From positions 9,775 through 73,774 of IMG/VR virus record IMGVR_UViG_3300028840_000888: a stretch of 64,000 nt of DNA; one strand, given 5' to 3'. The stretch comes from a virus. Both the position numbers and the translations under genes were made by a program. Under the pieces are notes generated by a model that worked only from the letters and a program-made list of their open reading frames with translations, did no database searches and was not told the origin of the DNA. Numbering within the stretch: the first letter of the stretch is position 1; every line of letters starts with the position of its first letter. This document shows positions 16,033 to 33,767 of the stretch, piece by piece.

Positions 16033-16646
16033 TACCTCGCCTTCCCGAAGTCGTGCCTGATGACTTCGCCGTCCATATCATTGTACGGATACCCTAGCAG
16101 CCACACATGCGGCTGTACAATCTCAATCGCCCTCACAAGCGCTGCCTGATCCTGCTTTCTCCACCGTGACCACTGCTTACGCCATTCTGAGAATAGTCGC
16201 TCCGTGGTCTCGTTGCGCTTCCAATACACCACGCCTGCCTGGAATTGCAAGGGTGGGAATAGCCCGACCTCTTCACAGGTCATGGCGCGCTCTTGGTTCT
16301 CGATGTGGGCAAAGGCTGCGTTGCTCTGATTGCGGCTATAGGTAAGGGCGATGTCAAAGCCATTACGCAGAGCATCAAATGGCCCGTCGATGTCTTTCCT
16401 TGCCACGGTGTCAGCGTCCATATATAATGTTTCGTCAAAGTCTGTGAGCAGGTCTTGGTTAAGTTTCGCATCCCTTACTCCAAATGAATTATCTTTGTAA
16501 AATATTGAATGAGTGCCTTTTATGTTCAGTGATTCGGTTATGATCGTGATATGTAGGTCACAAACTGCGCGGATACTATCCACGCACGCTTTAGCTGCCT
16601 GGTGTGCCTTGACGCCATAGGCTACAATCACGATACCTCTGTTCAT
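16032..16646 (-). CDS. GT-A (GT8-like) glycosyltransferase
   Basis: TLYMDADT DxD motif, QAGVVYW, DQAAL, YN, IRH; ATGA coupling. Confidence 0.82.
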   Translation of the reverse strand: MNRGIVIVAYGVKAHQAAKACVDSIRAVCDLHITIITESLNIKGTHSIFYKDNSFGVRDAKLNQDLLTDFDETLYMDADTVARKDIDGPFDALRNGFDIALTYSRNQSNAAFAHIENQERAMTCEEVGLFPPLQFQAGVVYWKRNETTERLFSEWRKQWSRWRKQDQAALVRAIEIVQPHVWLLGYPYNDMDGEVIRHDFGKAR

Positions 16647-17287
16647 TGCATCCACGTAATAGGCAAAGCGCACATGGTCGGCTTCGCCTTGTAGAGTGCG
16701 CGCATAAAGGCGTGTTGTGGATCACCTCCCTCCTGTTGCCAATGGCGTATGAGTTTTTGGGTATCATCACAGCGTCGAATGAACACGGCGCGCACATCAT
16801 AGACAGGGAAGCGTAGGTCATGAATAAGCGCATCGGTCGTGGCCTTGTCCTTTGCGGAGCCAATATCACGCGCCAGGATACTATAGCGCCAGAGCGGAGC
16901 CGCCACTTGCCAGCCACGGTTGAGACGGTGGAAGCCCACGGAAACTAGCTGCGGCTTGATCGTAGAGTTTCCCGCCATGATCAAAGTGCGCGGCCAAGCA
17001 AGTTCTCGCTTGCCGACCTTTACCTCAAGGTCAGGATATTGGCTAGTTAGTTTGGCGCGCAATGTCTCACTATCGCTGGTCAAGATCACACCACAGTGAT
17101 CTAAGGCGAAGGCTTGACGGCGGTATTCAGGTGTTACGTAGGGTGAAAGCCTAGCGTCGCCGGAGGCGATTAACTGCTGCGCACGTTGGCGTCCTACTGA
17201 AAACCAATCGCCGGGGCGATTGATGACTATCTGCCCGTGTTTATCGGTCGTATGTACGATGTGCTTCGCTACAAGCTGTATGGGCAT
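16643..17287 (-). CDS. Degenerate GT-A paralogue with small N-terminal domain
   Basis: C-terminal part aligns by eye with neighbouring GT-A domains but has IMAGN in place of YMDAD. Confidence 0.6.
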   Translation of the reverse strand: MPIQLVAKHIVHTTDKHGQIVINRPGDWFSVGRQRAQQLIASGDARLSPYVTPEYRRQAFALDHCGVILTSDSETLRAKLTSQYPDLEVKVGKRELAWPRTLIMAGNSTIKPQLVSVGFHRLNRGWQVAAPLWRYSILARDIGSAKDKATTDALIHDLRFPVYDVRAVFIRRCDDTQKLIRHWQQEGGDPQHAFMRALYKAKPTMCALPITWMQ

Positions 17288-17302: not shown

Positions 17303-17331
17303 GGGCGCGCCGTCATGACGACGGCGCGCCC
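17303..17331. promoter_or_regulatory. 12-bp GC-rich hairpin without U-tract
   Basis: GGGCGCGCCGTC-ATGAC-GACGGCGCGCCC between head gene and GT cluster. Confidence 0.55.
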
Positions 17332-17341
17332 AATATGTGAG

Positions 17342-17770
17342 TTAGTCCACAACGCTGTCAAGGTTTGTGGTATTGACCGCCATGTGGCGCGGAACAAGGC
17401 CCCAAATCTGCACAACGTAGGTCTCGCCCTGTCCTGCGGGGGTAGTTTCGATATTGATGGCATCGAAGCCGCCGTCAACGTCAAACTCCTCGCCGCGAAT
17501 CTCGATAATCGTGGGGTTAGTGTCAGCGGCTTGGACGGTGGTGTCCTTGCCACCGGCATCAAAAGTCTTTGCCCCGGTTCCGGCGGCATCCGTTGCCTGC
17601 TCCACGTCCACGTCAATGTCACCGGTAAGGGTGACGGGCGTGATAATGACGACAAGACGGTGGAAGCGAGTTGAAAGGACATAGCCGGTGTTGTTCTCAA
17701 CGGCGCTGGCTACCACAACATCATTAGCCAGTAATTCTGCTTGTTCAGTAAAACGTGCGGTGTAATCCAT
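17342..17770 (-). CDS. Head decoration/capsid-associated protein
   Basis: Directly after capsid; VEQATDAAGTGAK motif. Confidence 0.6.
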   Translation of the reverse strand: MDYTARFTEQAELLANDVVVASAVENNTGYVLSTRFHRLVVIITPVTLTGDIDVDVEQATDAAGTGAKTFDAGGKDTTVQAADTNPTIIEIRGEEFDVDGGFDAINIETTPAGQGETYVVQIWGLVPRHMAVNTTNLDSVVD

Positions 17771-17784
17771 GATTATCCTCCTCC

Positions 17785-19128
17785 TTAGCTGCCACTCACG
17801 GCACCCAAGATGACGAACGGGCTAACCTGAGTCGTCCCGTCCTGATACGTCAGCGGTGCGCTCATCCAGGGCTGACCATCTACGCGATACACCATGCGGA
17901 AGCTCGTTTGATCGTGGCGGAAAAGCTCAATATCGGTACTGCGGAAGGTGACTTCCTGGCGCTGTCCGATCACGTACTTGCTCCAATCTGCCAGCAAGAT
18001 ACTGCCTTGCGTTCCGGGTAGCGGTAGCTTTTCTTCCCAAATGATCGGATAGCCGAACAAGGTCGAAGGCACGCCCTCGCGGGCGTTCGGGATGAAGACG
18101 TAGGAGGGGTTGGCAGCCGGGCCATTGAGTTGGATCAGGTTCGCCATGTGCTGGCGGTTGATGTGCCATACGGGGCTACGGCCCTGGAAGGCCATGAGCA
18201 TGTTGGCAAGGTCGCCAACGGAGAGGTTGGCGGCTGCCTGGGCCACAACGAGCGTGGGCTGGTTCACGGCAGTAATGACGCCGAGCGGTTGCCCGGTGCC
18301 GGTGCCTTGCAGGTAGGCGAGTTCAGAGTACCAGCGGATCGCCCCGGCGAAGCCCATCTCAGACTGTAGCCAAGTATCCAGGCTGATTACGGCATCTTCC
18401 AAAAGTTCATCAGAACTAATCGAGTAGCACACGAGCTTGTGTGCCACGAGCTGCATCTGTTTGAACTGCGGCGTGCTTTCATTTTTATTACTAGCTTCTT
18501 CCGTCCATGATGCAGTCATCCCGCCGAACCATGCCGGAGTCCCGGCGGTCGTGTTGGTCTGGTCAAGCACCGGAATGCGCAGAGCGCGCCGACGCATGGG
18601 AATGACCATTGCACGGGTGGCAATGGGCTGCGCGATAGGATCAAGGGCCAGCAGTTGATCGCGGTATTCGGTCGGGACAAGGAAACCACCATCGGCCCCC
18701 ACATTTTCCACGAGCGCCTTGTTCTCCCATTGGCCGTCAACGCCGCCAGACGGCGCGCTTTCACTGTACAGCTTTGAAGCGGGCTCACTCCGATCTTGCC
18801 AATCGTGTAGGCGCGCATCAACATGAAAGCGGTGCTTTGAGCTTCCGGCGACATGCACGTGATAGGCGAAGTCGCCCAGGTTCCTGAATCCACCAGGCGC
18901 GACGGGTGCAGGCTGCCGGTTAGTCTCGGCCTCGATGTTTTTGAGCTCCTTCTGTGCATCGGTCAGAAGCTCTAACTGTGCAGCCTGGTTGCCGTAGGTC
19001 TGCGCCTCGGCATACAACTCCTCAGAGCGCTTGATGTCTTCGGGCGTTGCCTGGTCGCTACTGACCAGGGCCAGGGCCTCGTTAACGCACTGAGTACGCT
19101 TCTCTTGAAGTTCTCGAATTTTAGACAT
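17785..19128 (-). CDS. Major capsid protein (HK97 fold)
   Basis: N-terminal coiled coil, GGFLVP, S.ELL.D, GTG.GQPLG, TLFGYPI, R.DG. Confidence 0.93.
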   Translation of the reverse strand: MSKIRELQEKRTQCVNEALALVSSDQATPEDIKRSEELYAEAQTYGNQAAQLELLTDAQKELKNIEAETNRQPAPVAPGGFRNLGDFAYHVHVAGSSKHRFHVDARLHDWQDRSEPASKLYSESAPSGGVDGQWENKALVENVGADGGFLVPTEYRDQLLALDPIAQPIATRAMVIPMRRRALRIPVLDQTNTTAGTPAWFGGMTASWTEEASNKNESTPQFKQMQLVAHKLVCYSISSDELLEDAVISLDTWLQSEMGFAGAIRWYSELAYLQGTGTGQPLGVITAVNQPTLVVAQAAANLSVGDLANMLMAFQGRSPVWHINRQHMANLIQLNGPAANPSYVFIPNAREGVPSTLFGYPIIWEEKLPLPGTQGSILLADWSKYVIGQRQEVTFRSTDIELFRHDQTSFRMVYRVDGQPWMSAPLTYQDGTTQVSPFVILGAVSGS

Positions 19129-19140
19129 GATTGTCCTCCA

Positions 19141-21099
19141 TTAAGTTAGTTTGTTAAGTTTTTGATACATCTCAATCCGTTGTCGTAACAGTTCCGCTTC
19201 GGTGGGTGCCTCATCAGGCGGCCCGGCCTCAGTGTCGCGGCCCTTATTTTCCTCATCTTCATTACCTGCCATGTCGTCTTCCGGTTCCACGGGCTCTTCC
19301 TCAGAAGGCATGGCGGTATCCAGCATCTCCTCAAGCGCGGTGGCTGCGGCATGGATCTGGTCAATGGTTGCGCGTATGCGTTGTGCGTTGGCCTTGCTAA
19401 TGGCGCGCCTGGCCTTTACCTCGCTGACAGCATCCTCAAGCGCCATCATATAAGAGTAGGTAGTGTGCGACGGCATTTCGTAAATCTCTTGCGGGCACCT
19501 ATCAGAGAATAAGTCAAGCATATCACCAAGTATACTGCTCATTAGCTTGCGCTGTTCGCGGCCTATGTTTCCGTACATGTACGAGTCGTCACAAATCATG
19601 GTGTACATCTTATGAATACAGCCCTGTAAATAGTCACCGAACATGGGCATACCTTGCATTTTTGATTCATTGCCTTTGTTCGCGCCCATTTCCTCTTGAT
19701 CCCACGGAGGTACAAGCCCGTCGTCGTCAAACTCCTCGCGCATCTTGGCATAGTAGCGCGCAACTTGCGTCTTGACGCGCTCTTGCTCTGCTTCTGGAAT
19801 ACCCACACCGCCACGTGCTCCCTGTAGCACTCCGGCAACGGCAAAAATTGCGCTAGGAATTGCAGTGAGTTCGCCGTTGATCACATCAGCATAGCCGAGC
19901 TTGTATCCACCAACCTGCTCGTCGGCTTCTGGATCACGGTAAAAGAAGGCATTCGCATATCGCTTCCAGTCTATCGTATCCAAGTCTTCGCTTTCGTCTT
20001 CACTTGCCCAACGACGTACACGCCCCTCCGCTTCCGTAGAATCCCATGCGCGATCACGCGATGCAAGTGGTAAGTTCTGATAAGTCAGCACGGCCTTTTT
20101 ATCTTTCTTCATATCGCCCTCCGTTTTCTTCGCTGAGAGTGTGGCGGTCGCGGGATTCATGCCCCACAACACGTTGCTATACTCCCATAGCCTGATTTCC
20201 TTTAGTTGTCGCACGCTGCATTTCTCACCGTTGCAGTTGGCTTCGACAAACTCAATCTGTACCGGGTCATAGCCGATGCTGCTTTCCGTGACGAAGCCGC
20301 CAGCCACGAGATTGAAGGCATTGCGCCCGTTATCCGTCTTCATGGCGTACTGTGTAGCCACGAGCAGGCCGCCGGTGGCATCGGGGGCATAACGTAGCAC
20401 CTCCACGGGTAATTGATCCTGCCCGACCTCACGCATCCATAGCGGCTTACCGATGACATTGTGAATTGAGTGCGCCTGGTGATTATCAAGGACACGCACC
20501 CGGCGGGCACTTTCGTCAATGCTCTTGGTGAAGGCTCCCGGCATGATCATGTCGCCGCCATCGTCAATATTGCCAATGACGGCCACGACCTGCTCAACTA
20601 TGCCCTGGGCCTCATCGGCCTTGACCACAAAGGTAGGCATCCGCTTGACTTCATAGTCTGGAAGATTGCGGTATGCGCCCGTCTTGCGTAGCTTCTGCGC
20701 ATCAATTTTCTTTTTCATAGTGTTTAGAACCTCCTTCATACGACCTTCGCCCAACTGCCCAACGACGCCCCACTTCACCCATGCCACGACTCCGGCGATA
20801 TTTGAAATGTTCGGCTCATCCGGGCTGCTGCCGGTAAAAGCGTCGCCGTTGTCAAAATGTCTTGCGGCCCATGCTTCACGTTCGCGGATCCATTCAAGCA
20901 CGGCCTCACCTTCACTGCCGTCACGCGCACGCCCCCATAGCGTAAAGGCTTCATTACCGCGAATATTACCACCGGCATCCCATATCTGTGGGTAGTCGTC
21001 GCGTAAATCCTCAGCCCATGCCCGGTCAAACTGCGGATAATTGGAATTGCGCAGGCTTACCTTTAGATCATCGCCCTGTTGCGGGAAGTTAGTCGGCAT
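19141..21099 (-). CDS. HK97 prohead protease with extra N- and C-terminal domains
   Basis: D..GD....GAF, H, SIGY, L.E.S.V..G.N; acidic scaffold-like tail. Confidence 0.88.
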   Translation of the reverse strand: MPTNFPQQGDDLKVSLRNSNYPQFDRAWAEDLRDDYPQIWDAGGNIRGNEAFTLWGRARDGSEGEAVLEWIREREAWAARHFDNGDAFTGSSPDEPNISNIAGVVAWVKWGVVGQLGEGRMKEVLNTMKKKIDAQKLRKTGAYRNLPDYEVKRMPTFVVKADEAQGIVEQVVAVIGNIDDGGDMIMPGAFTKSIDESARRVRVLDNHQAHSIHNVIGKPLWMREVGQDQLPVEVLRYAPDATGGLLVATQYAMKTDNGRNAFNLVAGGFVTESSIGYDPVQIEFVEANCNGEKCSVRQLKEIRLWEYSNVLWGMNPATATLSAKKTEGDMKKDKKAVLTYQNLPLASRDRAWDSTEAEGRVRRWASEDESEDLDTIDWKRYANAFFYRDPEADEQVGGYKLGYADVINGELTAIPSAIFAVAGVLQGARGGVGIPEAEQERVKTQVARYYAKMREEFDDDGLVPPWDQEEMGANKGNESKMQGMPMFGDYLQGCIHKMYTMICDDSYMYGNIGREQRKLMSSILGDMLDLFSDRCPQEIYEMPSHTTYSYMMALEDAVSEVKARRAISKANAQRIRATIDQIHAAATALEEMLDTAMPSEEEPVEPEDDMAGNEDEENKGRDTEAGPPDEAPTEAELLRQRIEMYQKLNKLT

Positions 21100-21400
21100 G
21101 TTGCTTCTCCTGTGCCCTCGCCCACTTCTCATCTATCACGAGGATATGCAGGCGTTCTGTGTAGCCGCCGCGCACAGTTTTTCCACTGACGGGTAGCTTT
21201 TCGATGGTCACGACCTCGGTGTCTAAAATGTGCGGCGGTATTGACTTATTACCATAATTTAATACTGTGTAGCTTGGATTTGCGGCCATACCCGCGACTC
21301 TAACTGATGTTGTTCGTGCCGTTAGGTGCGCGAAAAATACACACAGGGCGTTTGGTTCAATGCCCAACTCTCTACAAAGCTCAATAATTGCGTGGTTCAT
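21089..21400 (-). CDS. Hypothetical protein
   Basis: Coupled ORF. Confidence 0.6.
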   Translation of the reverse strand: MNHAIIELCRELGIEPNALCVFFAHLTARTTSVRVAGMAANPSYTVLNYGNKSIPPHILDTEVVTIEKLPVSGKTVRGGYTERLHILVIDEKWARAQEKQHAD

Positions 21401-21591
21401 TTTACCTCACTCGGTCCAGGTCGGCGCGCCGTGTCTGTTTCGGTTTTGCGCTCAAAGATCACGCGCAAGCCACACCCTGGGCATGTCTTGACTATCTGCT
21501 GTCCCGGCGCAATAGGGCGCTGGATAAAAATGCGCGCCTGACATTCCGGGCAGTGTACCACTGCCACTTTTTGGTATGTGTAATCCTGCAT
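21397..21591 (-). CDS. Zinc-ribbon protein (Com-like)
   Basis: CPEC...CPGC. Confidence 0.6.
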   Translation of the reverse strand: MQDYTYQKVAVVHCPECQARIFIQRPIAPGQQIVKTCPGCGLRVIFERKTETDTARRPGPSEVK

Positions 21592-22508
21592 TATACTACC
21601 CCCTGCGTTACGTCCTGCGTAATCACTGTAAATGTAGCAATAAGCGGCTCTGCACTATTACGCGCATTGGCCCCCGGTACTTCCATATCCACGATGTAGC
21701 TATATGTTGCATCTGTAGTGAAATTGTAGTCGCCAACAGCGCCGCCGGTCGGCGCCCAACGCAGCATTAGGAGCTCATTGTTTTCAAAACGCTGCCGCAA
21801 CGCATTGAATACCATCCCGTCGGCTTCCGTGTAAAGTACCTCAATAGTCACGCGTTCGGCAATACGCTTTCCCATTGACACGATGGGCGTGTCCGTTGCC
21901 TGCGGCTGCGTCTCAGAAAAACGCCGGGAGCGGCGCGGGGTGCGGATTGAATTGGCAAAGCCGCTGACATCCACCCAGTTAATGTTATCGGTCGAGTATT
22001 CTATGAAATAGCAGCCCTGTGGATTGGCGGTTACATGCGCCTCAGTAAATAGTCCACACCATGCTGCCTCGGCATCACTATTAAGCGCCCCGACCACAGC
22101 CGGGAAGCCTGCCGCATAGCCGCCGGTAAGACGGTCGGTGCGAATTACGGATGGGTCATCGCTGCCGGTCTCATTAATAAATGATGTGTTGTTATTGACC
22201 TGGCGTGCGATCCACACGTAATCTGTCGTCAGCACTACACTGCCGGCTAGTGCTATTTCATATTGCGCCGCTCCGACCGCCACGGCAAAATCTGCCGTCT
22301 GAGCAAGCAGGGCCGATGGTAGACTTGCCACATCGCTGTAAATCCCTAATCTGTAGCGCGCTCCGGCGGGTGCAGTTACAACACGGAAGCGCAGCATTGA
22401 TGCAGTTATAGGCGGCTGAATCGGGCAGCGCATGAAAAATGTCCATGTCTGGTTGATGTCCTGCTTGGAGGTAGCAAGACGTCCGCCCACATCATACCAG
22501 GTTCCCAT
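21591..22508 (-). CDS. Tail tube paralogue fused to an N-terminal domain
   Basis: C-half matches 25594-26076 (W.D.SG, ETQ...DTPI...GKR, LYTE, RW.P.GGA.GD, PG). Confidence 0.7.
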   Translation of the reverse strand: MGTWYDVGGRLATSKQDINQTWTFFMRCPIQPPITASMLRFRVVTAPAGARYRLGIYSDVASLPSALLAQTADFAVAVGAAQYEIALAGSVVLTTDYVWIARQVNNNTSFINETGSDDPSVIRTDRLTGGYAAGFPAVVGALNSDAEAAWCGLFTEAHVTANPQGCYFIEYSTDNINWVDVSGFANSIRTPRRSRRFSETQPQATDTPIVSMGKRIAERVTIEVLYTEADGMVFNALRQRFENNELLMLRWAPTGGAVGDYNFTTDATYSYIVDMEVPGANARNSAEPLIATFTVITQDVTQGVV

Positions 22509-24976
22509 TACCCTACCCCCATGAATGAGTTAAGGCGTCGGGAGCGCCGGTCTTGAATCATTGCGCCAAGTACGCGGGCGGCCCCGCCATCATAGACATT
22601 AGTAATGAAGGTGTCACCGCCGCCGGTAGCCTGCGCCCGTGATCCTTCAAGCGGCGCAACTGTGACCTGCTCGGCACCAGCTTCACCTGCCACGAAGTTG
22701 AAAGCTGTGGGTCGGTTTACGAAACGCGTCATGCCTGCTTGGAAGAACTCTTGCTCGGTGCGTCCCGTGAATCCACCGGCGGCACCGCCTTCACCGGGTA
22801 GCTTGTCGCCGGTGACATTGACGTTGATATTGATGTCACGCGGAATTGCAGCGGCAGCACTGGATACGCCTTCAAGGTTTCCGGCTGCGGTACGCGCCCT
22901 TCCGCTCAGATTTTCCATAGCCCCGCCAAGATTGCGCGCAGCGTTCGAGCTTTCATGTAATGCCCTGCGGTTCGCGCTGAACCTTTCCTCCATTGCACTA
23001 CCAACTTGTGCGCCGCGCTCACCCGCCTCTGATAGTGTGCCAACAAACTCGGAAGTGCTCTGGCTCATGCCGACTATACTTTCATCCACTGTCTGCATAG
23101 ATTCGACTATGGCTTGCATACGTGGCGCCGCTTCTACTGCAACGGTATCTAGTCCCTGTGTTAAATTGCGCGTTTCACGAACTGACATGCCTAATGTTTC
23201 GCGCATGTTAGCCATGCGCTGATCAATCGCCTCTATTGATTTGCCGCCGCGCTTCCCCACCTGCGTCATTTCTTTAGTGATTTCTTCTGTGTCTTTCGCA
23301 AGCCCTTGTACTGCACCATCCATAGCAAGTAGTTTGTCGGTGCGCTTTTCTATCGGGTCGCCCTCAATGATCTCTACATCACTGATCCCATCCAGTTCTC
23401 TTGAGAGTTTACCGGCGGCATCCGCCATGCCCTGTGCGTCAACTGCGCCGCTCTCAAATTGTGAGGCAATTTCATCTATACCTTGAATGGCCTCAAGCGT
23501 TGCGTCATCCAGCAGGCCCCACTCATTGGCAACCTGCTGTAAGCCCATAAGCTCAGCTTGTGTAAGCCCATCTAGGGCCAGGCGTTGCTCAAGGAATCCT
23601 AGCAGTATGCGGCGTGTCGCTTCTTCATGGGCCGCTGCATTATCCTCAACGGCTTGCTGTGCGTCGCGCAGGCTGCCTTGCAGGTCTGAAAGTTGGCCCT
23701 TCTGATCATCTGTAAGATACCGCCGACCTTCAAGTTCGGCTATCTGGTCTTTGAGTTCACGCACTTTGACACGGGCCTCATGCTGTTTCTCGGTGAAGCT
23801 CTCAACCTCTTGACTTATTGGCCCGCTCAATAATGTGTGGTATTGTGAAACGGCGTCTTTGGTCGCGGCAATTGCGCCCTCAAGTGTCTCGGCGTCTTGG
23901 GATGCGCTTCTCATGCTGACGCCCATATCACTAAAGCCCTCGCTGGCATACTCGCCGGCGCGGGCCGCTTGCGTAGTCTCAAAGGTGACACGATCCATAG
24001 TGTCGCCAAAACCCACGCCCAGGCGAATGGCCTCATCAATGACCAAGTTATTATCGCCAAAAATCTTGTCAACTTCCTGCGCGGCCATGCCTTCTTCAAA
24101 TAGTGACTTGCGTACAGTTTGGGCAACCCGGTCAAATTCTGCGGTGGTCTGAATAGCAACCATCTGAGTGCGCGCGTAGTCTTCCCATGTGCGGCCCGCA
24201 TCAATGGCCTGTTGTGTGTTGTCAGCTAGTGCGTCGCTTAGGTCGCGGGTGAAGGTAAAGACCTTGCTGGCGCTGTTCAGAACCGGGACTATGCCGTCAG
24301 CCACCCAAGAGACAAAGGCGTTCTTGGAGTCTGTGACAATGGCGGTAAGCCGGTCAATGCTGGCCTGTTGGCTATTCACGGAATCACCCAGGCGCTCCAT
24401 AGACTGCGCCCCGATTTCAAGCACGGCATTGTTAAAGGCTGCCTCGCGGGATAGTCCGGGCATGGCGGCTTGCAGTTCCTCAATACGCGTGCGCACCTGA
24501 GCGCTGCTGATCCCGAAGTTGTCAAGACGCGGGATTGACTGGTTTGCCAGGAGCGCGCTAAAGTCTCCAATACGGTCGCCCGCGCTCATGGTCTGGTCGC
24601 CCAATGCCACGGCCATGCTGGTCAGCTTGGCTGCTTGGTCAGCATTGTCAGCGAGGCCCATTGACAGGAATTTCGACACGGCCTGCATAGAGGTCATGCT
24701 GTCAATAGTGCCGTTAGTCGCCTGGCGGATCTGGCGTAGGAATTTGTCAGCCTCTTGCTCACTACCGGCAAGTGCAGTAAAGCGGTCGGCTACCGTGTTC
24801 ACGGAAGCGCCGAGCTTCGCCATTTCAAACGTAGCAGTTAAAGCCCCGGCTGCTGCGGCGGCCCCTGCGAATGGCGCGGATTTACGCAGGGCATCAAAGG
24901 CATCTTCAATATTCTTAATGCCTTTAGTGTCCGATGATGTATCGACCTGTACTTCTACCCTGTTTCTACGCGCCAT
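22508..24976 (-). CDS. Tape measure protein
   Basis: 822-aa Ala-rich helical ORF after TAC genes; LDNFGI and GEAGAE motifs. Confidence 0.88.
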   Translation of the reverse strand: MARRNRVEVQVDTSSDTKGIKNIEDAFDALRKSAPFAGAAAAAGALTATFEMAKLGASVNTVADRFTALAGSEQEADKFLRQIRQATNGTIDSMTSMQAVSKFLSMGLADNADQAAKLTSMAVALGDQTMSAGDRIGDFSALLANQSIPRLDNFGISSAQVRTRIEELQAAMPGLSREAAFNNAVLEIGAQSMERLGDSVNSQQASIDRLTAIVTDSKNAFVSWVADGIVPVLNSASKVFTFTRDLSDALADNTQQAIDAGRTWEDYARTQMVAIQTTAEFDRVAQTVRKSLFEEGMAAQEVDKIFGDNNLVIDEAIRLGVGFGDTMDRVTFETTQAARAGEYASEGFSDMGVSMRSASQDAETLEGAIAATKDAVSQYHTLLSGPISQEVESFTEKQHEARVKVRELKDQIAELEGRRYLTDDQKGQLSDLQGSLRDAQQAVEDNAAAHEEATRRILLGFLEQRLALDGLTQAELMGLQQVANEWGLLDDATLEAIQGIDEIASQFESGAVDAQGMADAAGKLSRELDGISDVEIIEGDPIEKRTDKLLAMDGAVQGLAKDTEEITKEMTQVGKRGGKSIEAIDQRMANMRETLGMSVRETRNLTQGLDTVAVEAAPRMQAIVESMQTVDESIVGMSQSTSEFVGTLSEAGERGAQVGSAMEERFSANRRALHESSNAARNLGGAMENLSGRARTAAGNLEGVSSAAAAIPRDININVNVTGDKLPGEGGAAGGFTGRTEQEFFQAGMTRFVNRPTAFNFVAGEAGAEQVTVAPLEGSRAQATGGGDTFITNVYDGGAARVLGAMIQDRRSRRLNSFMGVG

Positions 24977-25277
24977 TGTTTTCTAATTCACTTCGTAATT
25001 TGATTATGTCCTGTATGAGCGGCCATTGCTCTTTGTGCTGTGCCAACCAGTCCGAGATTTTGCCATCTATCTGCCGATTTGTCCAAGCTCGCCACGCGTC
25101 ATAGTAAGCCCATGATGCCAAGATGCGGTTTAGCTCCCCCGCCGGCCATTCATTGAAGGCCCCTGGGTACGGCTTGATATTCCAACCGCGCATCCTGAAC
25201 GCATGCGTTAGCTCTCGCGGCGGCGTTGCGCTGGCGTCATCAGCCGTTGCAACCGCCGCGAGTATCATGCTTTTGGG
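24966..25277 (-). CDS. Tail assembly chaperone extension reached by -1 frameshift
   Basis: C-CCA-AAA slippery heptamer at 25277-25271 links to the -1 frame. Confidence 0.72.
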   Translation of the reverse strand, partial: PKSMILAAVATADDASATPPRELTHAFRMRGWNIKPYPGAFNEWPAGELNRILASWAYYDAWRAWTNRQIDGKISDWLAQHKEQWPLIQDIIKLRSELENNGA

Positions 25278-25585
25278 ATTTGTGCATAGCTCAGTATTTC
25301 GCGCTGCGCAATGCTGGAAATCCAAGTCACGGCACGCGGGTCAAGTTCATGCACGGCGCTCTCATTGTAGCTGCACCAGCCGAGCCGGGCCAGGGTGCGC
25401 GCGACGACGCCATTGTATTCAGGCCCACTCATGCCCTGGTCATCCTTACCAGTGCGCTTATTACGCGCCTTGATGTACTCGTCCTTGACGTTTCGCTCCG
25501 TGCCGAAATACAACTCCATCGCGCCCTGCGTGAACGGTTCCGGGATGCTGACTTTAATATTGTACTCTTTAAGTTCAGCTTTCAT
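25265..25585 (-). CDS. Tail assembly chaperone
   Basis: Between tail tube and TMP; slippery site at 3' end. Confidence 0.72.
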   Translation of the reverse strand: MKAELKEYNIKVSIPEPFTQGAMELYFGTERNVKDEYIKARNKRTGKDDQGMSGPEYNGVVARTLARLGWCSYNESAVHELDPRAVTWISSIAQREILSYAQIPKA

Positions 25586-25593
25586 GGTTCCTC

Positions 25594-26076
25594 CTAACTC
25601 GAAATGGTATCGCGGTGAATCTTGTCGCTGAATAGCGAGAAGGAGAACGGAATAGGCGAGGCTTCGGACGCTTCGCCTCCGGGATAGTCAAAGTCCTGGA
25701 TCACACCGCAGCGCACCTCATACTGCTTGTCGCCAATGGCGCCACCGGCAGGAGACCAGCGCGCGCAGTAGCGGGCATCATCACAATCCTCATCCTCAAA
25801 CTTAGCGGCAATCGCCAAAAACGCATCTGTCGGCTGCTCGGTATACAATCCTGCAAATAGCGGATTGACCGCAGTGCGCTTGCCGCCGTTGATGATAGGC
25901 GTGTCGTCACCGAATACCTGCGTCTCAGCAGTTATGCGCGTTTGTGTCGTATTGCTCACGCTCATAAAATGTCCGCTAATGTCCGTCCATGATCCACATA
26001 CGCCAGCGGCGCATGGTGCGATCTCTAATTTTACACAACTCTGCGGAATCGAATAACCAGTTTTAGCCATCGTCAT
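25594..26076 (-). CDS. Major tail (tube) protein
   Basis: Position, 160 aa, beta-rich. Confidence 0.72.
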   Translation of the reverse strand: MTMAKTGYSIPQSCVKLEIAPCAAGVCGSWTDISGHFMSVSNTTQTRITAETQVFGDDTPIINGGKRTAVNPLFAGLYTEQPTDAFLAIAAKFEDEDCDDARYCARWSPAGGAIGDKQYEVRCGVIQDFDYPGGEASEASPIPFSFSLFSDKIHRDTISS

Positions 26077-29930: not shown

Positions 29931-32330
29931 TTATGGAAACTCATCTGCAAATAGTACTAACTCTTGACAGCGGCATTGTATGATATTTCCCAATGATGCG
30001 CCCATGCTTTCATCACCTGGATACATCAGGCGCTCGCCGCTAACTGTAAATGGCGTATCTATAGGTCGCTGTTGTCCGTTGGCCGCTCGATGGTTAAAGT
30101 TATCTGTCGGCTTAGCTCCGCGCTCCCTCCCATCCAATGTCGTCAGCCACTCATGCCCGGTGATGTCCACGCCATCCTCGCGCCACACATCATACAGGCG
30201 CCGCGTCCCGGCATTGCTGGCGCGTAGCGTTTGGTCACGGGCGATTAGCTCAAGCCGGTTGGTGGTCAGTCGCTTGCAGGCGAAGAAGGCAGCCTCGCTC
30301 AGGTCGTCGGCTTCACAATCTGCCTTCCCTATCCATCGCTTGAAGAGGGTGTCAATTGATTCCATAGTCTGCGGGATTGACCACCCGCGCACCTGGGCTT
30401 CCTGGATGATCTCATTGATTAGGGATGAGGAAGTCTGCGCTATCTCGTCGGCAAAGGTCATGGTGTAGTCGTTTAGCCAGTCACCGGCAAACAAGTTGGT
30501 CACGTCGAAAGCGAAGCCGTATGCCAGGGAGGTTAGGTTTGCCTGCGCCGTCACGAGCCCCTCAAGCTGCGGAATGAATATCCCGGCCCATTCGTCGCCG
30601 GATTCATTGAGGAAATAGTCTCGCAACTCTTGGCTGGTTGCTTCCCAGTTGATGGTTTGTTTCGCCTGGCGGGCCTTTTTCTTTGCCCGCATGATGATCT
30701 GCATTACAGCGCGGCGGTCATTCTTGAAGCCTTCAAGTGCGGCATCCTGCAAGATGGGCTCATACTCAATGGCTACGGCATCGCGCTGCTTCCATAGCAT
30801 TTCCTTCTGCTCGTGGTCAAGACGCTTGATCTGACGCGTTTTGGCGCGGTCGGTGTCGTCTTCGGTAGCCTCTACTGCCCCCGCTTCATCATCTGGTAGT
30901 TCCTCAAAGACCGGCTGCATGATGGTTTGCAAGTTCACCTTGAGCACATCACCATTGGGTAATTCCGACAAGCCGGCGGCGCGGCGGTATTCATTCATCG
31001 TCACGGCGCTGGCATCCCATCCCTCAAGTAGCGCCGCCTGCCTATCTGCGCGGATGTCTTCAAATGCGGGTATCTGCGAGTAGTCAAAGCGGATGAAGTA
31101 ACCGCTATCGGGCTGCCCCAAGTAGTAGTTATACTCCTGCTCAAACCAGCCAAGTTCTGGCACCATCGTATCTTCCCAGAACGCCTTGCGCGCCTCTCGA
31201 TAGTTTTCGTAGGTAGAACGCAGTAGGCCCAAGCGGGCGCCGACAAGGATCAGCGGAACGCCGAACACCATCGCTATCCGGCTTTCATTGCGCTGGTCTA
31301 TGAGGTCTAAATCCATTTCTTCCGGGCTTAACATGATACGCTGATACTCACCGTCGGCATCCGTCACGCCGACCTCCCCGCCGTATAGCTCCTGCCAGCG
31401 CTCCTTGATACGACCCATGACTTCCTCGTCAAGCGGCATACTAAAGTTGAGTATGCCGTCCATTGTCTTCCGCATCTTGTCGATGAGTTCTGAGAAGTAT
31501 AGGGTGATGTCGTTGTCCATGTCCACGTTGTATGCGGCGGCTGACAAGGGAGAAAGGCCATAGCCCATGCCCTCAAGCGGATCCAACAGATTCGGCAATT
31601 TGACATGCATCATGTCTTGGGCCGGGATACGGACGGCCCGCTCGGTGTCACCCGGCAGCACACCTTCGGGCGTGTAGATGTAGCCGACCTTCGCAAAGCC
31701 GTTCTTGGAACGCACTAACTGTCCGTAAGCCTTGCGCTCATATCTGGTCATGGGCCGGCGCCAAGTATCCATGACATTATTGCCGCGCTTCTTTGCTGTG
31801 ATGATGTCATAGTTTTGCAAGGCGATTATCCACACGCGGTCGGGACGCAAGGGGTGTAAGCCAATGGGTAAGCCGGTCTTGGGGTCGCGATCAATCATCA
31901 CGAATGAGTTGCCGTCGATGTTCAAATAGGCTTCATTGAGGCCCTGAAACTCCGGCTGACTCTGGTATGTGTTCGGGCGGTCGAGAAGCTTGGTCAAGTC
32001 GTTGTCTGCGGGCAATACTTCGGGCTGATCCCGCGTACCCTCGTAAGCCCGCAGCGGCGCGGCGGTGATGGCGCGAACCTTATACATGATGCAGGCATAC
32101 ACCAGGGCGTTGCGGTTGAATCCGTCCAGCACATAGCTTTGGTAATCCGTGATGTGGTGCTGTGGTATCTCGGCGCGTGAGGAGAAGTCTAGCGGCATGA
32201 ATTTGGTGTTTACGTTGCGCATCCGGCGCTCCACGTACATCATCATTTGCAGGTCTTCATCGCGGCGCTGCTTAAATAAATTAGCTTTGTAAACCTTTGG
32301 CCTAAATAATCGATCAATCCATTGCGGCAT
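29931..32330 (-). CDS. Portal protein fused to MuF-like minor head domain
   Basis: N.LVYACI, L.PDRV, G.SP, I...FGVP; C-terminal W....D.R.R...H, L.YPGD, N.IQCRC. Confidence 0.9.
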   Translation of the reverse strand: MPQWIDRLFRPKVYKANLFKQRRDEDLQMMMYVERRMRNVNTKFMPLDFSSRAEIPQHHITDYQSYVLDGFNRNALVYACIMYKVRAITAAPLRAYEGTRDQPEVLPADNDLTKLLDRPNTYQSQPEFQGLNEAYLNIDGNSFVMIDRDPKTGLPIGLHPLRPDRVWIIALQNYDIITAKKRGNNVMDTWRRPMTRYERKAYGQLVRSKNGFAKVGYIYTPEGVLPGDTERAVRIPAQDMMHVKLPNLLDPLEGMGYGLSPLSAAAYNVDMDNDITLYFSELIDKMRKTMDGILNFSMPLDEEVMGRIKERWQELYGGEVGVTDADGEYQRIMLSPEEMDLDLIDQRNESRIAMVFGVPLILVGARLGLLRSTYENYREARKAFWEDTMVPELGWFEQEYNYYLGQPDSGYFIRFDYSQIPAFEDIRADRQAALLEGWDASAVTMNEYRRAAGLSELPNGDVLKVNLQTIMQPVFEELPDDEAGAVEATEDDTDRAKTRQIKRLDHEQKEMLWKQRDAVAIEYEPILQDAALEGFKNDRRAVMQIIMRAKKKARQAKQTINWEATSQELRDYFLNESGDEWAGIFIPQLEGLVTAQANLTSLAYGFAFDVTNLFAGDWLNDYTMTFADEIAQTSSSLINEIIQEAQVRGWSIPQTMESIDTLFKRWIGKADCEADDLSEAAFFACKRLTTNRLELIARDQTLRASNAGTRRLYDVWREDGVDITGHEWLTTLDGRERGAKPTDNFNHRAANGQQRPIDTPFTVSGERLMYPGDESMGASLGNIIQCRCQELVLFADEFP

Positions 32331-32342
32331 CTATCACCTCGC

Positions 32343-33767
32343 TTACCCGAATCCTATCCCACGCCGTGTCTTTATCGCGGTCTCTGACATCGCCCCGGCG
32401 ACTATGCTATCCGGCGGATGTCCACTGCCGTAAAGGTCGTCGCGTGCAGCATACTTGTACTCATTATACATCCATTTTATCATCGGCGCAACTATGCCAC
32501 GATCCTCAACAGTCGCAATGTGATTTGTGAACATATTCTTGCGCGTGTTGCCGGTCATGATGATAGCCTGTGAGCGCACCGTGGAGTAGTCGGCTACCAC
32601 GTCACCTACGCCCGTACCATCATGCGCCGCCTTGCCGCCGTAGCGTTTAACACGGCGGTCATAGCGTGATACCATCTTGGGCCACGGCTTGCGCTGATGC
32701 CGCTCGAAGGCTACGAGACGCCAGGGAGACACATCATAACGGATGGTAACAATGACGGTGTGATCTTGCTTCTTGGCCCAGTCTGCGCCCGTGGCATAGC
32801 GGGCATTGCGGAGCTTACTCTTGCATACGGCGCACTTCTTATGCGTGGCGTCGGCGGCTATGATCTCCCAACCGCAGACAGGACACACAAGCATGGGCGG
32901 CTCGATCTCGATGTATTCACCGTTGCGCCCTTCAAATGTTCCCAATTTGGGATCAAACATCTGCTCAACCTTCTCCGGCATAATGGCACGGCCTTCCGGT
33001 GACGGTTCGTTAAGGTCATATTCCACCTTCCACATTTGCGCCGGGATCACGGTGCGCTTGTTTTCTACCTCGGAAGGGAGAAGCCAGCCGCCCTCTGCGC
33101 TTGTCTCTTGGTATCCCCAATAGTGGACGGGCCAGCCGTGCTTGTTGGCGCGTTTGAGCACTTCCGTCATAACGCCATCGGCTTTGTGGTGCGTGGAGCT
33201 AAGGACGGTCTGCGCCTTGATGACTACCTTGCCATTTTCTACCACACTCATGGGTTGACCCAACGCCGCGTCTAGGAGGTCGATGGACATTTCATCAACT
33301 TCATCCCCGCGCAGCTTGGGTGCGTGTGGCCCTCTAATGCTCTTCTGTGATGCCGTTAGTGCATTGACCGTATTGCCCCACACAAAGCGGTGCAATGTTG
33401 TCAGCGGTTCGCCTTCCCATAGATGCTTGGGTGAGTTCTGCGCGCGGTAGAATTGTGTAATGTAATCCTGGATCCGCTTTGCCTGCTCAAAGCTGCCGCC
33501 GAGGATACTCACATCGGCTTTCTGCGTCAATGCCTCTACGGTAGAAAGGAGTGCGAGCAGGTATGACTTTCCCGCGAAGCCACGACTACCTACCCACACG
33601 ACAACAGGTGATTTGGCGAAGTACGCATCACAGAAGGCCCGCCACGGTGTTGAGTGTCCCTCTACCACTACCTGGTCAGGGATACATGCGCCGAAGCATA
33701 GCTCTACGAATTCACGAAGGGCGCCCTCGGAGGTGATGGGTAGCTTGAACTTATGTGCGGTTGTCAT
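32343..33767 (-). CDS. terL: Terminase large subunit
   Basis: GSRGFAGKS Walker A, GDEVD Walker B, GADWAKKQD.T nuclease motif, D.TGVG, HPPD. Confidence 0.85.
   Translation of the reverse strand: MTTAHKFKLPITSEGALREFVELCFGACIPDQVVVEGHSTPWRAFCDAYFAKSPVVVWVGSRGFAGKSYLLALLSTVEALTQKADVSILGGSFEQAKRIQDYITQFYRAQNSPKHLWEGEPLTTLHRFVWGNTVNALTASQKSIRGPHAPKLRGDEVDEMSIDLLDAALGQPMSVVENGKVVIKAQTVLSSTHHKADGVMTEVLKRANKHGWPVHYWGYQETSAEGGWLLPSEVENKRTVIPAQMWKVEYDLNEPSPEGRAIMPEKVEQMFDPKLGTFEGRNGEYIEIEPPMLVCPVCGWEIIAADATHKKCAVCKSKLRNARYATGADWAKKQDHTVIVTIRYDVSPWRLVAFERHQRKPWPKMVSRYDRRVKRYGGKAAHDGTGVGDVVADYSTVRSQAIIMTGNTRKNMFTNHIATVEDRGIVAPMIKWMYNEYKYAARDDLYGSGHPPDSIVAGAMSETAIKTRRGIGFG

Follow-up and report, generated by a model that had tools for sequence, protein, structure and literature searches.

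A glycosyltransferase paralogue without DxD, fused to a DUF7210-like module, as a candidate accessory subunit of a putative phage virion-glycosylation cassette

ORF214 is a protein of 214 residues encoded directly behind the head genes in a 64-kb window (the whole stretch of DNA analysed here) out of a 73.8-kb viral contig, IMG/VR record IMGVR_UViG_3300028840_000888, whose completeness is estimated at 88%. Despite GT-A/GT8-like descent and fold, three defining catalytic features of glycosyltransferases (GTs) fail in this protein, and we therefore file it as a GT8-derived pseudo-enzyme rather than as a glycosyltransferase. Taken as a whole, our findings are best explained, with a probability of roughly 60%, if ORF214 is a non-catalytic paralogue of its neighbour GT213 and an accessory subunit of a virion-glycosylation cassette; that a non-catalytic GT paralogue serves the virion-glycosylation enzymes as a partner subunit is well supported computationally. 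The original prediction, made from the letters of the sequence, had described a catalytically dead GT paralogue that carries a small head-protein-like domain, docks on the capsid and recruits or dimerises with active GTs. In the sources that we searched, there is no description of a phage protein that combines a GT-A fold with a DUF7210-type module, has a set position in a cassette next to the capsid genes and belongs to a family of about 450 clusters.

ORF214 is a trimmed paralogue of the neighbouring glycosyltransferase

The reading frame is a real gene, as had been assumed, and its ATG on the minus strand is preceded at a distance of 6 nt by an AGGAG Shine-Dalgarno sequence (Table 1). A profile built from ORF214 and two close relatives retrieved about 450 clusters at 50% identity (E<=1e-3) from 1.8 billion representatives, nearly all of whose members measure 200-225 residues and align end to end; given this number of full-length clusters, ORF214 is a member of a large undescribed family rather than a decayed local copy. 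The whole protein has no significant match in Pfam, PHROGs or NCBIfam, and tblastn found no match to it in 50,697 isolated phage genomes. In a sequence search of the PDB, neither the family profile nor a profile of the N-terminal domain gave a match.

What kind of domain makes up the bulk of the protein? The AlphaFold2 (AF2) model, computed from 139 homologues, reached a predicted local distance difference test (pLDDT) score of 95.1, and its residues ~60-214 adopt a GT-A fold. Structural comparison by VIA matched 125-145 residues of the model to many GT-A enzymes with Z scores of 8.0-9.2 and root-mean-square deviations of 3.0-3.6 A. B4GALNT1, WrtF, DPMS and mannosylglycerate synthase all fall within this range of Z, and the same fold is found in the capsid glycosyltransferase A64R of PBCV-1 (Z 8.4), in A197 of STIV (8.0) and in the retaining GT8 enzymes glycogenin (8.0) and LgtC (7.4). 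Foldseek matches in the PDB and BFVD were GT-A or nucleotidyltransferase folds. A MobA/IspD-like nucleotidyltransferase was considered as an alternative identity and rejected, because the GxGxR signature after β1 is not conserved.

The closest kinship lies within the cassette itself. BLASTP values against GT560 (E 0.001) and GT213 (E 0.05) are marginal taken alone. A comparison by hhalign of the ORF214 family profile with a profile of 37 GT213 homologues yielded a probability of 99.1% and an E value of 9.9e-19 over 114 columns (7.6e-17 in a repeat), laying residues 97-212 of ORF214, that is, its C-terminal 116 residues, over residues 78-197 of the GT8-like GT213. This alignment pairs TLYMDADT, LRNGF, YWKRNETT and QDQAALVRAI of GT213 with TLIMAGNS, LNRGW, FIRRCDDT and GDPQHAFMRAL of ORF214. 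The motif matches to the neighbouring GT-A domains that had been quoted from the sequence hold both here and in BLASTP (FIRRCDDT...DPQHAFMRALY), and IMAGN, said to replace YMDAD, superposes on it exactly. The proposed descent of ORF214 as a GT-A paralogue of its neighbours is thereby borne out by fold and profile alike. GT213 and the C-terminal half of GT560 are themselves clear paralogues (E 4e-17), and the Pfam family Nucleotid_trans matches three of the 139 ORF214 family members at E ~0.01.

The canonical donor-site motifs are missing

In the GT213 family, DADT, R67, K70, D175-Q176 and H207-x-x-G210 are invariant in all 37 sequences. Its nearest solved relatives by sequence are the glycogenins, with which the K, DxD, 'NSGV' and DQ motifs align. 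DxD and HxxGxxKPW are GT8 motifs held to contact Mn2+ and the nucleoside diphosphate (NDP)-sugar (PMC7533613).

Strict DxD, present in every GT213 homologue, occurs in three of the 139 ORF214 family members and [DE]x[DE] in nine, so that its absence, first noted for the single protein, extends to almost all homologues. The residues counted in column 105 across the 139 sequences include D (59), N (26), S (11) and E (8), and ORF214 itself has Ala there; column 107 is S, G, T, A or N and never conserved. The D-Q positions (190/191, equivalent to D162/Q163 of glycogenin) vary across the family. ORF214 ends with W212-M-Q, which is aligned to about residue 197 of GT213 and thus stops short of H207-x-x-G210; with a median of six residues after W212, the family at large lacks HxxG as well. 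The β3/α3 segment that bears R67 and K70 in GT213 is missing, which is why profile homology starts only at residue 97, and the family signature DLRVPxYD takes the place of the donor-sugar loop of GT213 (LQxQxG). Relative to GT8 enzymes, ORF214 is therefore without DxD, D-Q and HxxG(xxK), its nucleotide-binding half is shortened, and it possesses an extra N-terminal domain.

The acceptor-side half has fared differently: it is well conserved, and its core residues ER..T, W183 and R196-A197 are common to ORF214 and GT213. Loss of motifs together with a conserved acceptor-side half looks like the pattern of a pseudo-enzyme that keeps a binding surface, and ORF214 is very likely such a pseudo-enzyme, without a canonical donor site.

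ORF214 is linked to GT213 and is predicted to pair with it

About 45 IMG/VR loci, recovered through ORF214 relatives, share the gene order protease, major capsid protein (MCP), p142, ORF214, GT213 and GT560, with or without a following methyltransferase and sulfotransferase. GT213 is the next gene downstream in 41 of the 46 ORF214-anchored loci that have room downstream, and 31 overlap ORF214. Conversely, a search anchored on GT213 recovered an ORF214 gene in 62 of 65 loci having at least 900 bp upstream. When the MCP served as anchor, about half of the relatives had the cassette; 31 of 63, mostly with more distant MCPs, were without ORF214. Of the 31, 29 likewise have no apparent GT213-type gene, the exceptions being loci L151 and L164.

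Linkage extends to the level of single bases. The TGA of ORF214 and the conserved-register ATG of GT213 (Met10 of the listed ORF) share bases in the tetranucleotide ATGA, and overlaps of 4-46 nt between the two genes occur in most related loci; such an overlap of stop and start codons implies translational coupling of GT213 to ORF214. On its upstream side, ORF214 is set apart by a GC hairpin. Such a hairpin follows the p142 stop codon in the majority of related loci (z < -2 in 29 of 40; a few with U tracts) and is conserved in position, not in sequence. The hairpin appears to mark a boundary between the abundant head proteins and the enzyme genes, and it probably serves as an attenuator or as a site of RNA processing, lowering expression of the latter. 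On account of this separation from the abundant head proteins, ORF214 seems to belong with the enzymes and not with the structural components.

Might the two linked proteins form a complex? Prediction for ORF214 with GT213 gave an interaction prediction score from aligned errors (ipSAE) of 0.90 (0.88-0.91 in three runs) versus 0.00 for the best of three controls; when the tool was calibrated, 58 of 80 solved complexes attained this mark, as did 2 of 110 mismatched pairs. The three runs have 82% or more of their contacts in common, and the partner's pLDDT is at least 85. On ORF214, the interface comprises residues 117-138, 155-161 and 199-211, and thereby W126, Y135, L138, D157, R159, P161, Y199, L208 and P209, residues that rank with the best-conserved of the family; conservation amounts to 2.70 bits at the interface versus 1.98 bits in the rest of the domain (Mann-Whitney p 0.0018). 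The DLRVPxYD signature belongs to this interface, and the N-terminal module lies outside it. When mapped via the profile alignment, the surfaces used by ORF214 and GT213 are equivalent, making the predicted dimer pseudo-symmetric. Mutual information between the proteins across 86 ORF214/GT213 gene pairs was not enriched at the predicted contacts, in a sample that is small and whose interface columns are almost invariant. With regard to GT213, the idea that the pseudo-enzyme dimerises with active GTs thus gains computational support from the complex score, the near-obligate linkage and the translational coupling, and we consider it probable that ORF214 and GT213 assemble as a heterodimer.

The N-terminus resembles a head module

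The N-terminal domain is modelled by AF2 as four short strands, a helix (residues 33-42) and a further strand. It is present in 142 of 152 ORF214 family representatives and carries the motif PGDW-x-V-x4-A-x2-[WL]-x3-G-x-A, which in ORF214 reads PGDWFSVGRQRAQQLIASGDA (residues 25-45). Its structural neighbours in the Atlas are DUF7210, with a template modelling (TM) score of 0.68, Packaging_FI (0.65 over 47 residues, a short domain) and small viral Rho_N proteins (0.75), and its BFVD neighbours are phage proteins of 83-133 residues. The DUF7210 proteins of Pfam, small phage proteins of the head region, and the C-domain of lambda gpFI (PF14000) share with it the short motif PG-x-x-x-V-x4-A-x2-L-x3-G-x-A and, by Atlas comparison (TM 0.65-0.75), possibly a similar small fold. 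In contrast to these, the ORF214 domain has an extra β-hairpin, is fused to a GT-A domain instead of standing alone, and stays below Pfam thresholds.

Direct sequence searches with the ORF214 domain returned no significant Pfam, PHROG or PDB match. The weak matches came from relatives: 5 of 39 members hit phrog_2616, with a best E value of 0.0023, and a few hit DUF7210 (PF23843; gathering score 27 bits), which does not match ORF214, at E 0.0085-0.024. The DUF7210 model found no match in the window's genome, in lambda or in two cassette phages. A profile search for stand-alone homologues of 29-109 residues among 5.8 billion proteins yielded a single protein of 106 residues, probably a fragment. 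The N-terminal 60 residues produced chance matches only in a tblastn search of the isolated phage genomes, and gene 9 of a Gordonia phage, which lies next to terminase, was inspected and dismissed.

A relative of the domain was instead found within capsid proteins. In at least 12 contigs that have no cassette, the MCP starts with MF[VI]QL...G-x-x-AGE-x-x-DV-x4-A-x2-LI-x2-G-x-A (Table 1), and the ORF214 family consensus likewise starts with MWVQL and carries PGDWV-x-VGKQ-x-A-x2-W-x-A-x-G-x-A. The two profiles align in hhalign with a probability of 90.8% and an E value of 1.2e-6. Eleven of the 12 MCP modules match DUF7210 (best E 3e-5), all of them below the cut-off, and tblastn with the MCP module found no match in isolated phages. 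In these MCPs, the DUF7210-like module of ~40 residues precedes a helical, scaffold-like stretch; two of the contigs are classed as proviruses by IMG/VR.

Lambda FI, which is encoded directly after the capsid gene E, shows the same motif, and its comparison with the N-terminal domain (PF14000 Packaging_FI, E 0.08-0.09; in hhalign E 0.088, probability <1%, 23 columns, 35% identity) is not significant; nor does the DUF7210 model match lambda FI. Of the likeness to small head-region proteins claimed by the original prediction, the type of module is supported indirectly, by the MCP N-termini and by the DUF7210 matches below cut-off, whereas a direct stand-alone homologue was not found and the similarity to lambda FI is not significant. 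By its sequence, the domain is of the head-module type and appears DUF7210-like. It may serve to address or recognise a component of the head; the further step that it docks on the capsid we advance only tentatively.

Some family members depart from this pattern. In P0023, P0078, P0103 and P0139, the N-terminus diverges and contains a related motif, V-E-V-x-PG-V-x-LQL...A-x-RW, once or twice, which suggests duplication and divergence of the same small module.

A tagged active enzyme as the likely ancestral state

One locus joins the module to an intact enzyme. In L151, the gene after p142 (L151:4879-5685) encodes the N-terminal module (E 7e-7 to the N-terminal hidden Markov model, HMM) fused to a full-length GT213-type domain (GT213 HMM E 5e-53) that keeps all GT motifs (LDADT, DQ and H-x-x-W-G), and it is followed by a second, module-less GT213 gene (L151:5969-6625). 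Among 152 GT213-type proteins, this is the only fusion of its kind. We regard L151 as the likely ancestral state of the ORF214/GT213 pair; its arrangement suggests that a tagged active enzyme was duplicated, and that the tagged copy lost catalysis and stayed as the partner of the untagged one. A different variant, of 318 residues (L035:5545-6501), has a lengthy insertion that separates its module from its GT-A part.

Proposed role and alternative explanations

How might a pseudo-enzyme contribute to virion glycosylation? We envision a scenario whereby ORF214, which would have kept the acceptor-side C-terminal half of the GT-A fold and given up the donor/metal site, is produced in step with GT213 through translational coupling and forms with it a pseudo-symmetric heterodimer similar to the homodimers of GT8 enzymes. 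ORF214 would thereby be an obligate accessory subunit of a cassette composed of GT-A, GT4+GT-A, methyltransferase and sulfotransferase enzymes, which lies immediately after the capsid genes and whose most likely function is the O-glycosylation of virion proteins, and it would contribute acceptor recognition, localisation, or both. The probable acceptors would be the C-terminal tails of the MCP. In all 41 distinct MCP relatives (loci L002-L045), the C-terminus reads SPFV[IV]L and then 4-6 small residues, of which the last is Ser or Thr (here GAVSGS); by analogy, this Ser/Thr-terminated tail is a candidate for O-glycosylation.

Several points weigh against this reading. GT-A enzymes that act independently of DxD exist, and the invariant polar residues of the ORF214 family (D157, R159, Y163, D164, R166, R171, R172, E186 and R196) could form a different active site. 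The alignments used for complex prediction were built by the analyst, with each chain entered as an alignment, and the two chains are paralogues, so that the high score may partly reflect memory of solved glycogenin-type homodimers. Finally, the module is not indispensable to judge by two ORF214 relatives (L048:5827-6501 and L049:5854-6312), which are without module and without DxD, adjoin a methyltransferase and have no separate GT213 gene.

A more specific version of the accessory-subunit proposal, one that we deem possible yet doubtful, is that of a strict capsid-targeting adaptor, whose module binds the MCP or p142 of the (pro)capsid and whose dead GT-A domain holds GT213, and perhaps GT560, on the shell for glycosylation of the MCP tails. 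It draws on the homology between the module and the MCP N-terminal module of cassette-less relatives, on the presence of the lambda FI C-domain family among the structural neighbours (FI being encoded directly after E), and on the module being free of the predicted GT213 interface. The ORF214 gene is also always located behind head genes, all MCP relatives carry the Ser/Thr-terminated tail, and L151 has the module attached to an intact enzyme, as would be expected of an address tag. The adaptor hypothesis is weakened by the lambda FI comparison, in which neither the domain nor DUF7210 finds a significant counterpart. Moreover, a module at the MCP N-terminus might face the prohead interior, and the hairpin renders expression in stoichiometric amounts with the head proteins less likely.

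One may take this idea further, at a similarly speculative level: conceivably, DUF7210-type modules serve as portable tags for addressing the head, and in this phage group the tag was first carried by an active GT213-type enzyme, as L151 still has it. Upon duplication and loss of catalysis, the tagged copy would have become a subunit for acceptor recognition and docking that brings the GT heterodimer to the (pro)capsid, where the tails of assembled MCP would be glycosylated and then methylated and sulfated in situ. If true, ORF214 would be, for virion glycosylation in phages, the first targeting subunit on record, and a function could be assigned to DUF7210 modules.

Alternatively, ORF214 might be an active, metal-independent transferase with a non-canonical site made up of D157, R159, Y163, D164, R166, R171 and R172, which adds a distinct sugar or another group to the glycan. 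The strong conservation of these polar residues, the high confidence with which a GT-A fold is kept, and the retention of one acidic residue at position 105 in ~49% of members are in line with such an activity, as is the existence of DxD-independent enzymes. We nevertheless consider it unlikely, given that the nucleotide-binding half is shortened and misses the R67/K70 segment, that the C-terminal HxxG donor motif is absent, that D157, R159 and P161 are part of the predicted protein-protein interface, and that position 105 is Ala in ORF214 itself.

Far less probable still is the notion that ORF214 is an acceptor or glycan carrier, which GT213 would glycosylate across the pseudo-dimer in the manner of glycogenin. 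Glycogenins are indeed the nearest solved relatives of GT213, the predicted dimer is pseudo-symmetric with loops adjacent to the active site at its interface, and Tyr135, Tyr163 and Tyr199 are invariant; but the argument is pure analogy, and ORF214 is without a Ser/Thr/Tyr-rich acceptor segment, the conserved Ser/Thr tails being those of the MCP. A role of ORF214 in head structure, as a decoration or cement protein that descends from a GT and takes no part in glycosylation, might be suggested by its position behind the head genes and its head-module-type domain, but is just as improbable, because ORF214 accompanies GT213 in 62 of 65 loci and overlaps the GT213 start, 29 of the 31 ORF214-less MCP/p142 relatives also have no GT gene, and the hairpin separates it from MCP and p142.

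Phage virion glycosylation has been reported only recently, and the ORF214 family, understood as an accessory subunit of the cassette, provides a concrete and testable candidate for how phage glycosylation enzymes find their capsid substrates. If confirmed, it would represent a phage example of pseudo-enzyme-assisted protein glycosylation and open a first route to the function of DUF7210-type modules. With its help, glycans or other cargo might also be targeted to capsids, which has a bearing on phage stability, host interactions and immune recognition.

Relation to known systems

By analogy, the nearest functional counterparts of ORF214 appear to be inactive GT paralogues that assist active enzymes, namely GtfB, which serves GtfA, and in part GAUT7, which serves GAUT1. 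In the GtfA-GtfB O-linked N-acetylglucosamine (O-GlcNAc) transferase of streptococcal serine-rich-repeat adhesins, an inactive paralogue pairs with a catalytic GT. The inactive partner, GtfB, is thought to handle the protein acceptor, and the target is a Ser/Thr-rich segment. GtfA and GtfB are bacterial enzymes of GT-B fold, whereas ORF214 and GT213 are phage-encoded, of GT-A fold, and the inactive subunit bears a head-module domain. In the plant GT8 pair GAUT1:GAUT7, the paralogue GAUT7 anchors and thereby localises the catalytic subunit (PMC7533613). According to the same paper, GAUT7 retains DxD and HxxGxxKPW, and the retained DxD weakens the analogy. GAUT7 anchors through a membrane segment; in ORF214 the motifs are gone, and a soluble DUF7210-like domain is the presumed address module.

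Among phages, mycobacteriophages such as Che8 encode GTs that modify capsid subunits (Freeman et al. 2023, PMID 37329881, as cited in PMC11256854 and PMC12582341). The system described here differs from the Che8 type in belonging to another, uncultured phage group, in the position of its cassette directly behind the capsid genes, in its methyl- and sulfotransferases and in its dedicated DxD-less partner. To our knowledge, no such partner has been described for the glycosylation systems of mycobacteriophages. A study by Freeman et al. (2023) is said to have located mycobacteriophage glycans on the C-termini of capsid and tail-tube subunits, and sites of that kind would fit the Ser/Thr-terminated MCP tails found here.

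Genomic context

The features of the window, together with the contigs in which the module opens the MCP, are collected in Table 1. The head protein p142 (phrog_28483) has feature and structure neighbours in the Atlas that partly carry Pfam Bbp16 (12% of the cluster; TM 0.72). Bbp16 is the cement protein of Bordetella phage BPP-1, and p142 may be a Bbp16-like cement or decoration protein, possibly a jellyroll.

Table 1. Features of the 64-kb window and contigs whose major capsid protein carries the N-terminal module
Feature	Position	Strand	Remark
Terminase	32343-33767	minus	
Portal	29931-32330	minus	
Tail-like genes	between portal and prohead protease	minus	
Weak major-tail-protein match	25594-26076		
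822-aa tape-measure-like ORF	22508-24976		
305-aa ORF	within tail-like stretch 21591-26076		
S78-type prohead protease	19141-21132	minus	
HK97-fold MCP	17785-19128	minus	
p142, 142-aa head protein	17342-17770	minus	always upstream of ORF214
GC stem-loop, 12 bp, without U tract	17303-17331	minus	between p142 stop and ORF214 Shine-Dalgarno
ORF214, 214 aa	16643-17287	minus	N-terminal DUF7210-like module and trimmed DxD-less GT-A domain
ORF214 N-terminal domain, residues 1-60	17108-17287	minus	AF2 model
ORF214 trimmed GT-A domain, residues 61-214	16646-17107	minus	fold, profile homology, motif comparison
IMAGN, ORF214 residues 103-107, at the DxD position	16967-16981	minus	hhalign
ATGA overlap of ORF214 stop and GT213 start	16643-16646	minus	sequence
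GT213, 213 aa	16032-16673	minus	GT8/glycogenin-like GT-A enzyme
GT560, 560 aa	14350-16032	minus	GT4 (GT-B) domain and second GT213-like GT-A domain
Class I methyltransferase, then sulfotransferase	after GT560	minus	
MCP N-terminal module, contig L172	L172:4267-4410		
MCP N-terminal module, contig L186	L186:3314-3457		
MCP N-terminal module, contigs L177, L178, L180, L182, L184, L187, L188, L190-L192			

The late genes run in an unusual order, in which the portal is followed by the tail-like genes (21591-26076, assigned through weak PHROG matches) and these by the protease and MCP. Among 185,579 prokaryote species genomes, the sole match is on a 36.9-kb contig (L123, CAYTTK010000007.1) of a metagenome-assembled genome from an uncultured member of the Pirellulales (Planctomycetota); this contig, which may itself be a binned phage, offers a weak lead to the host.

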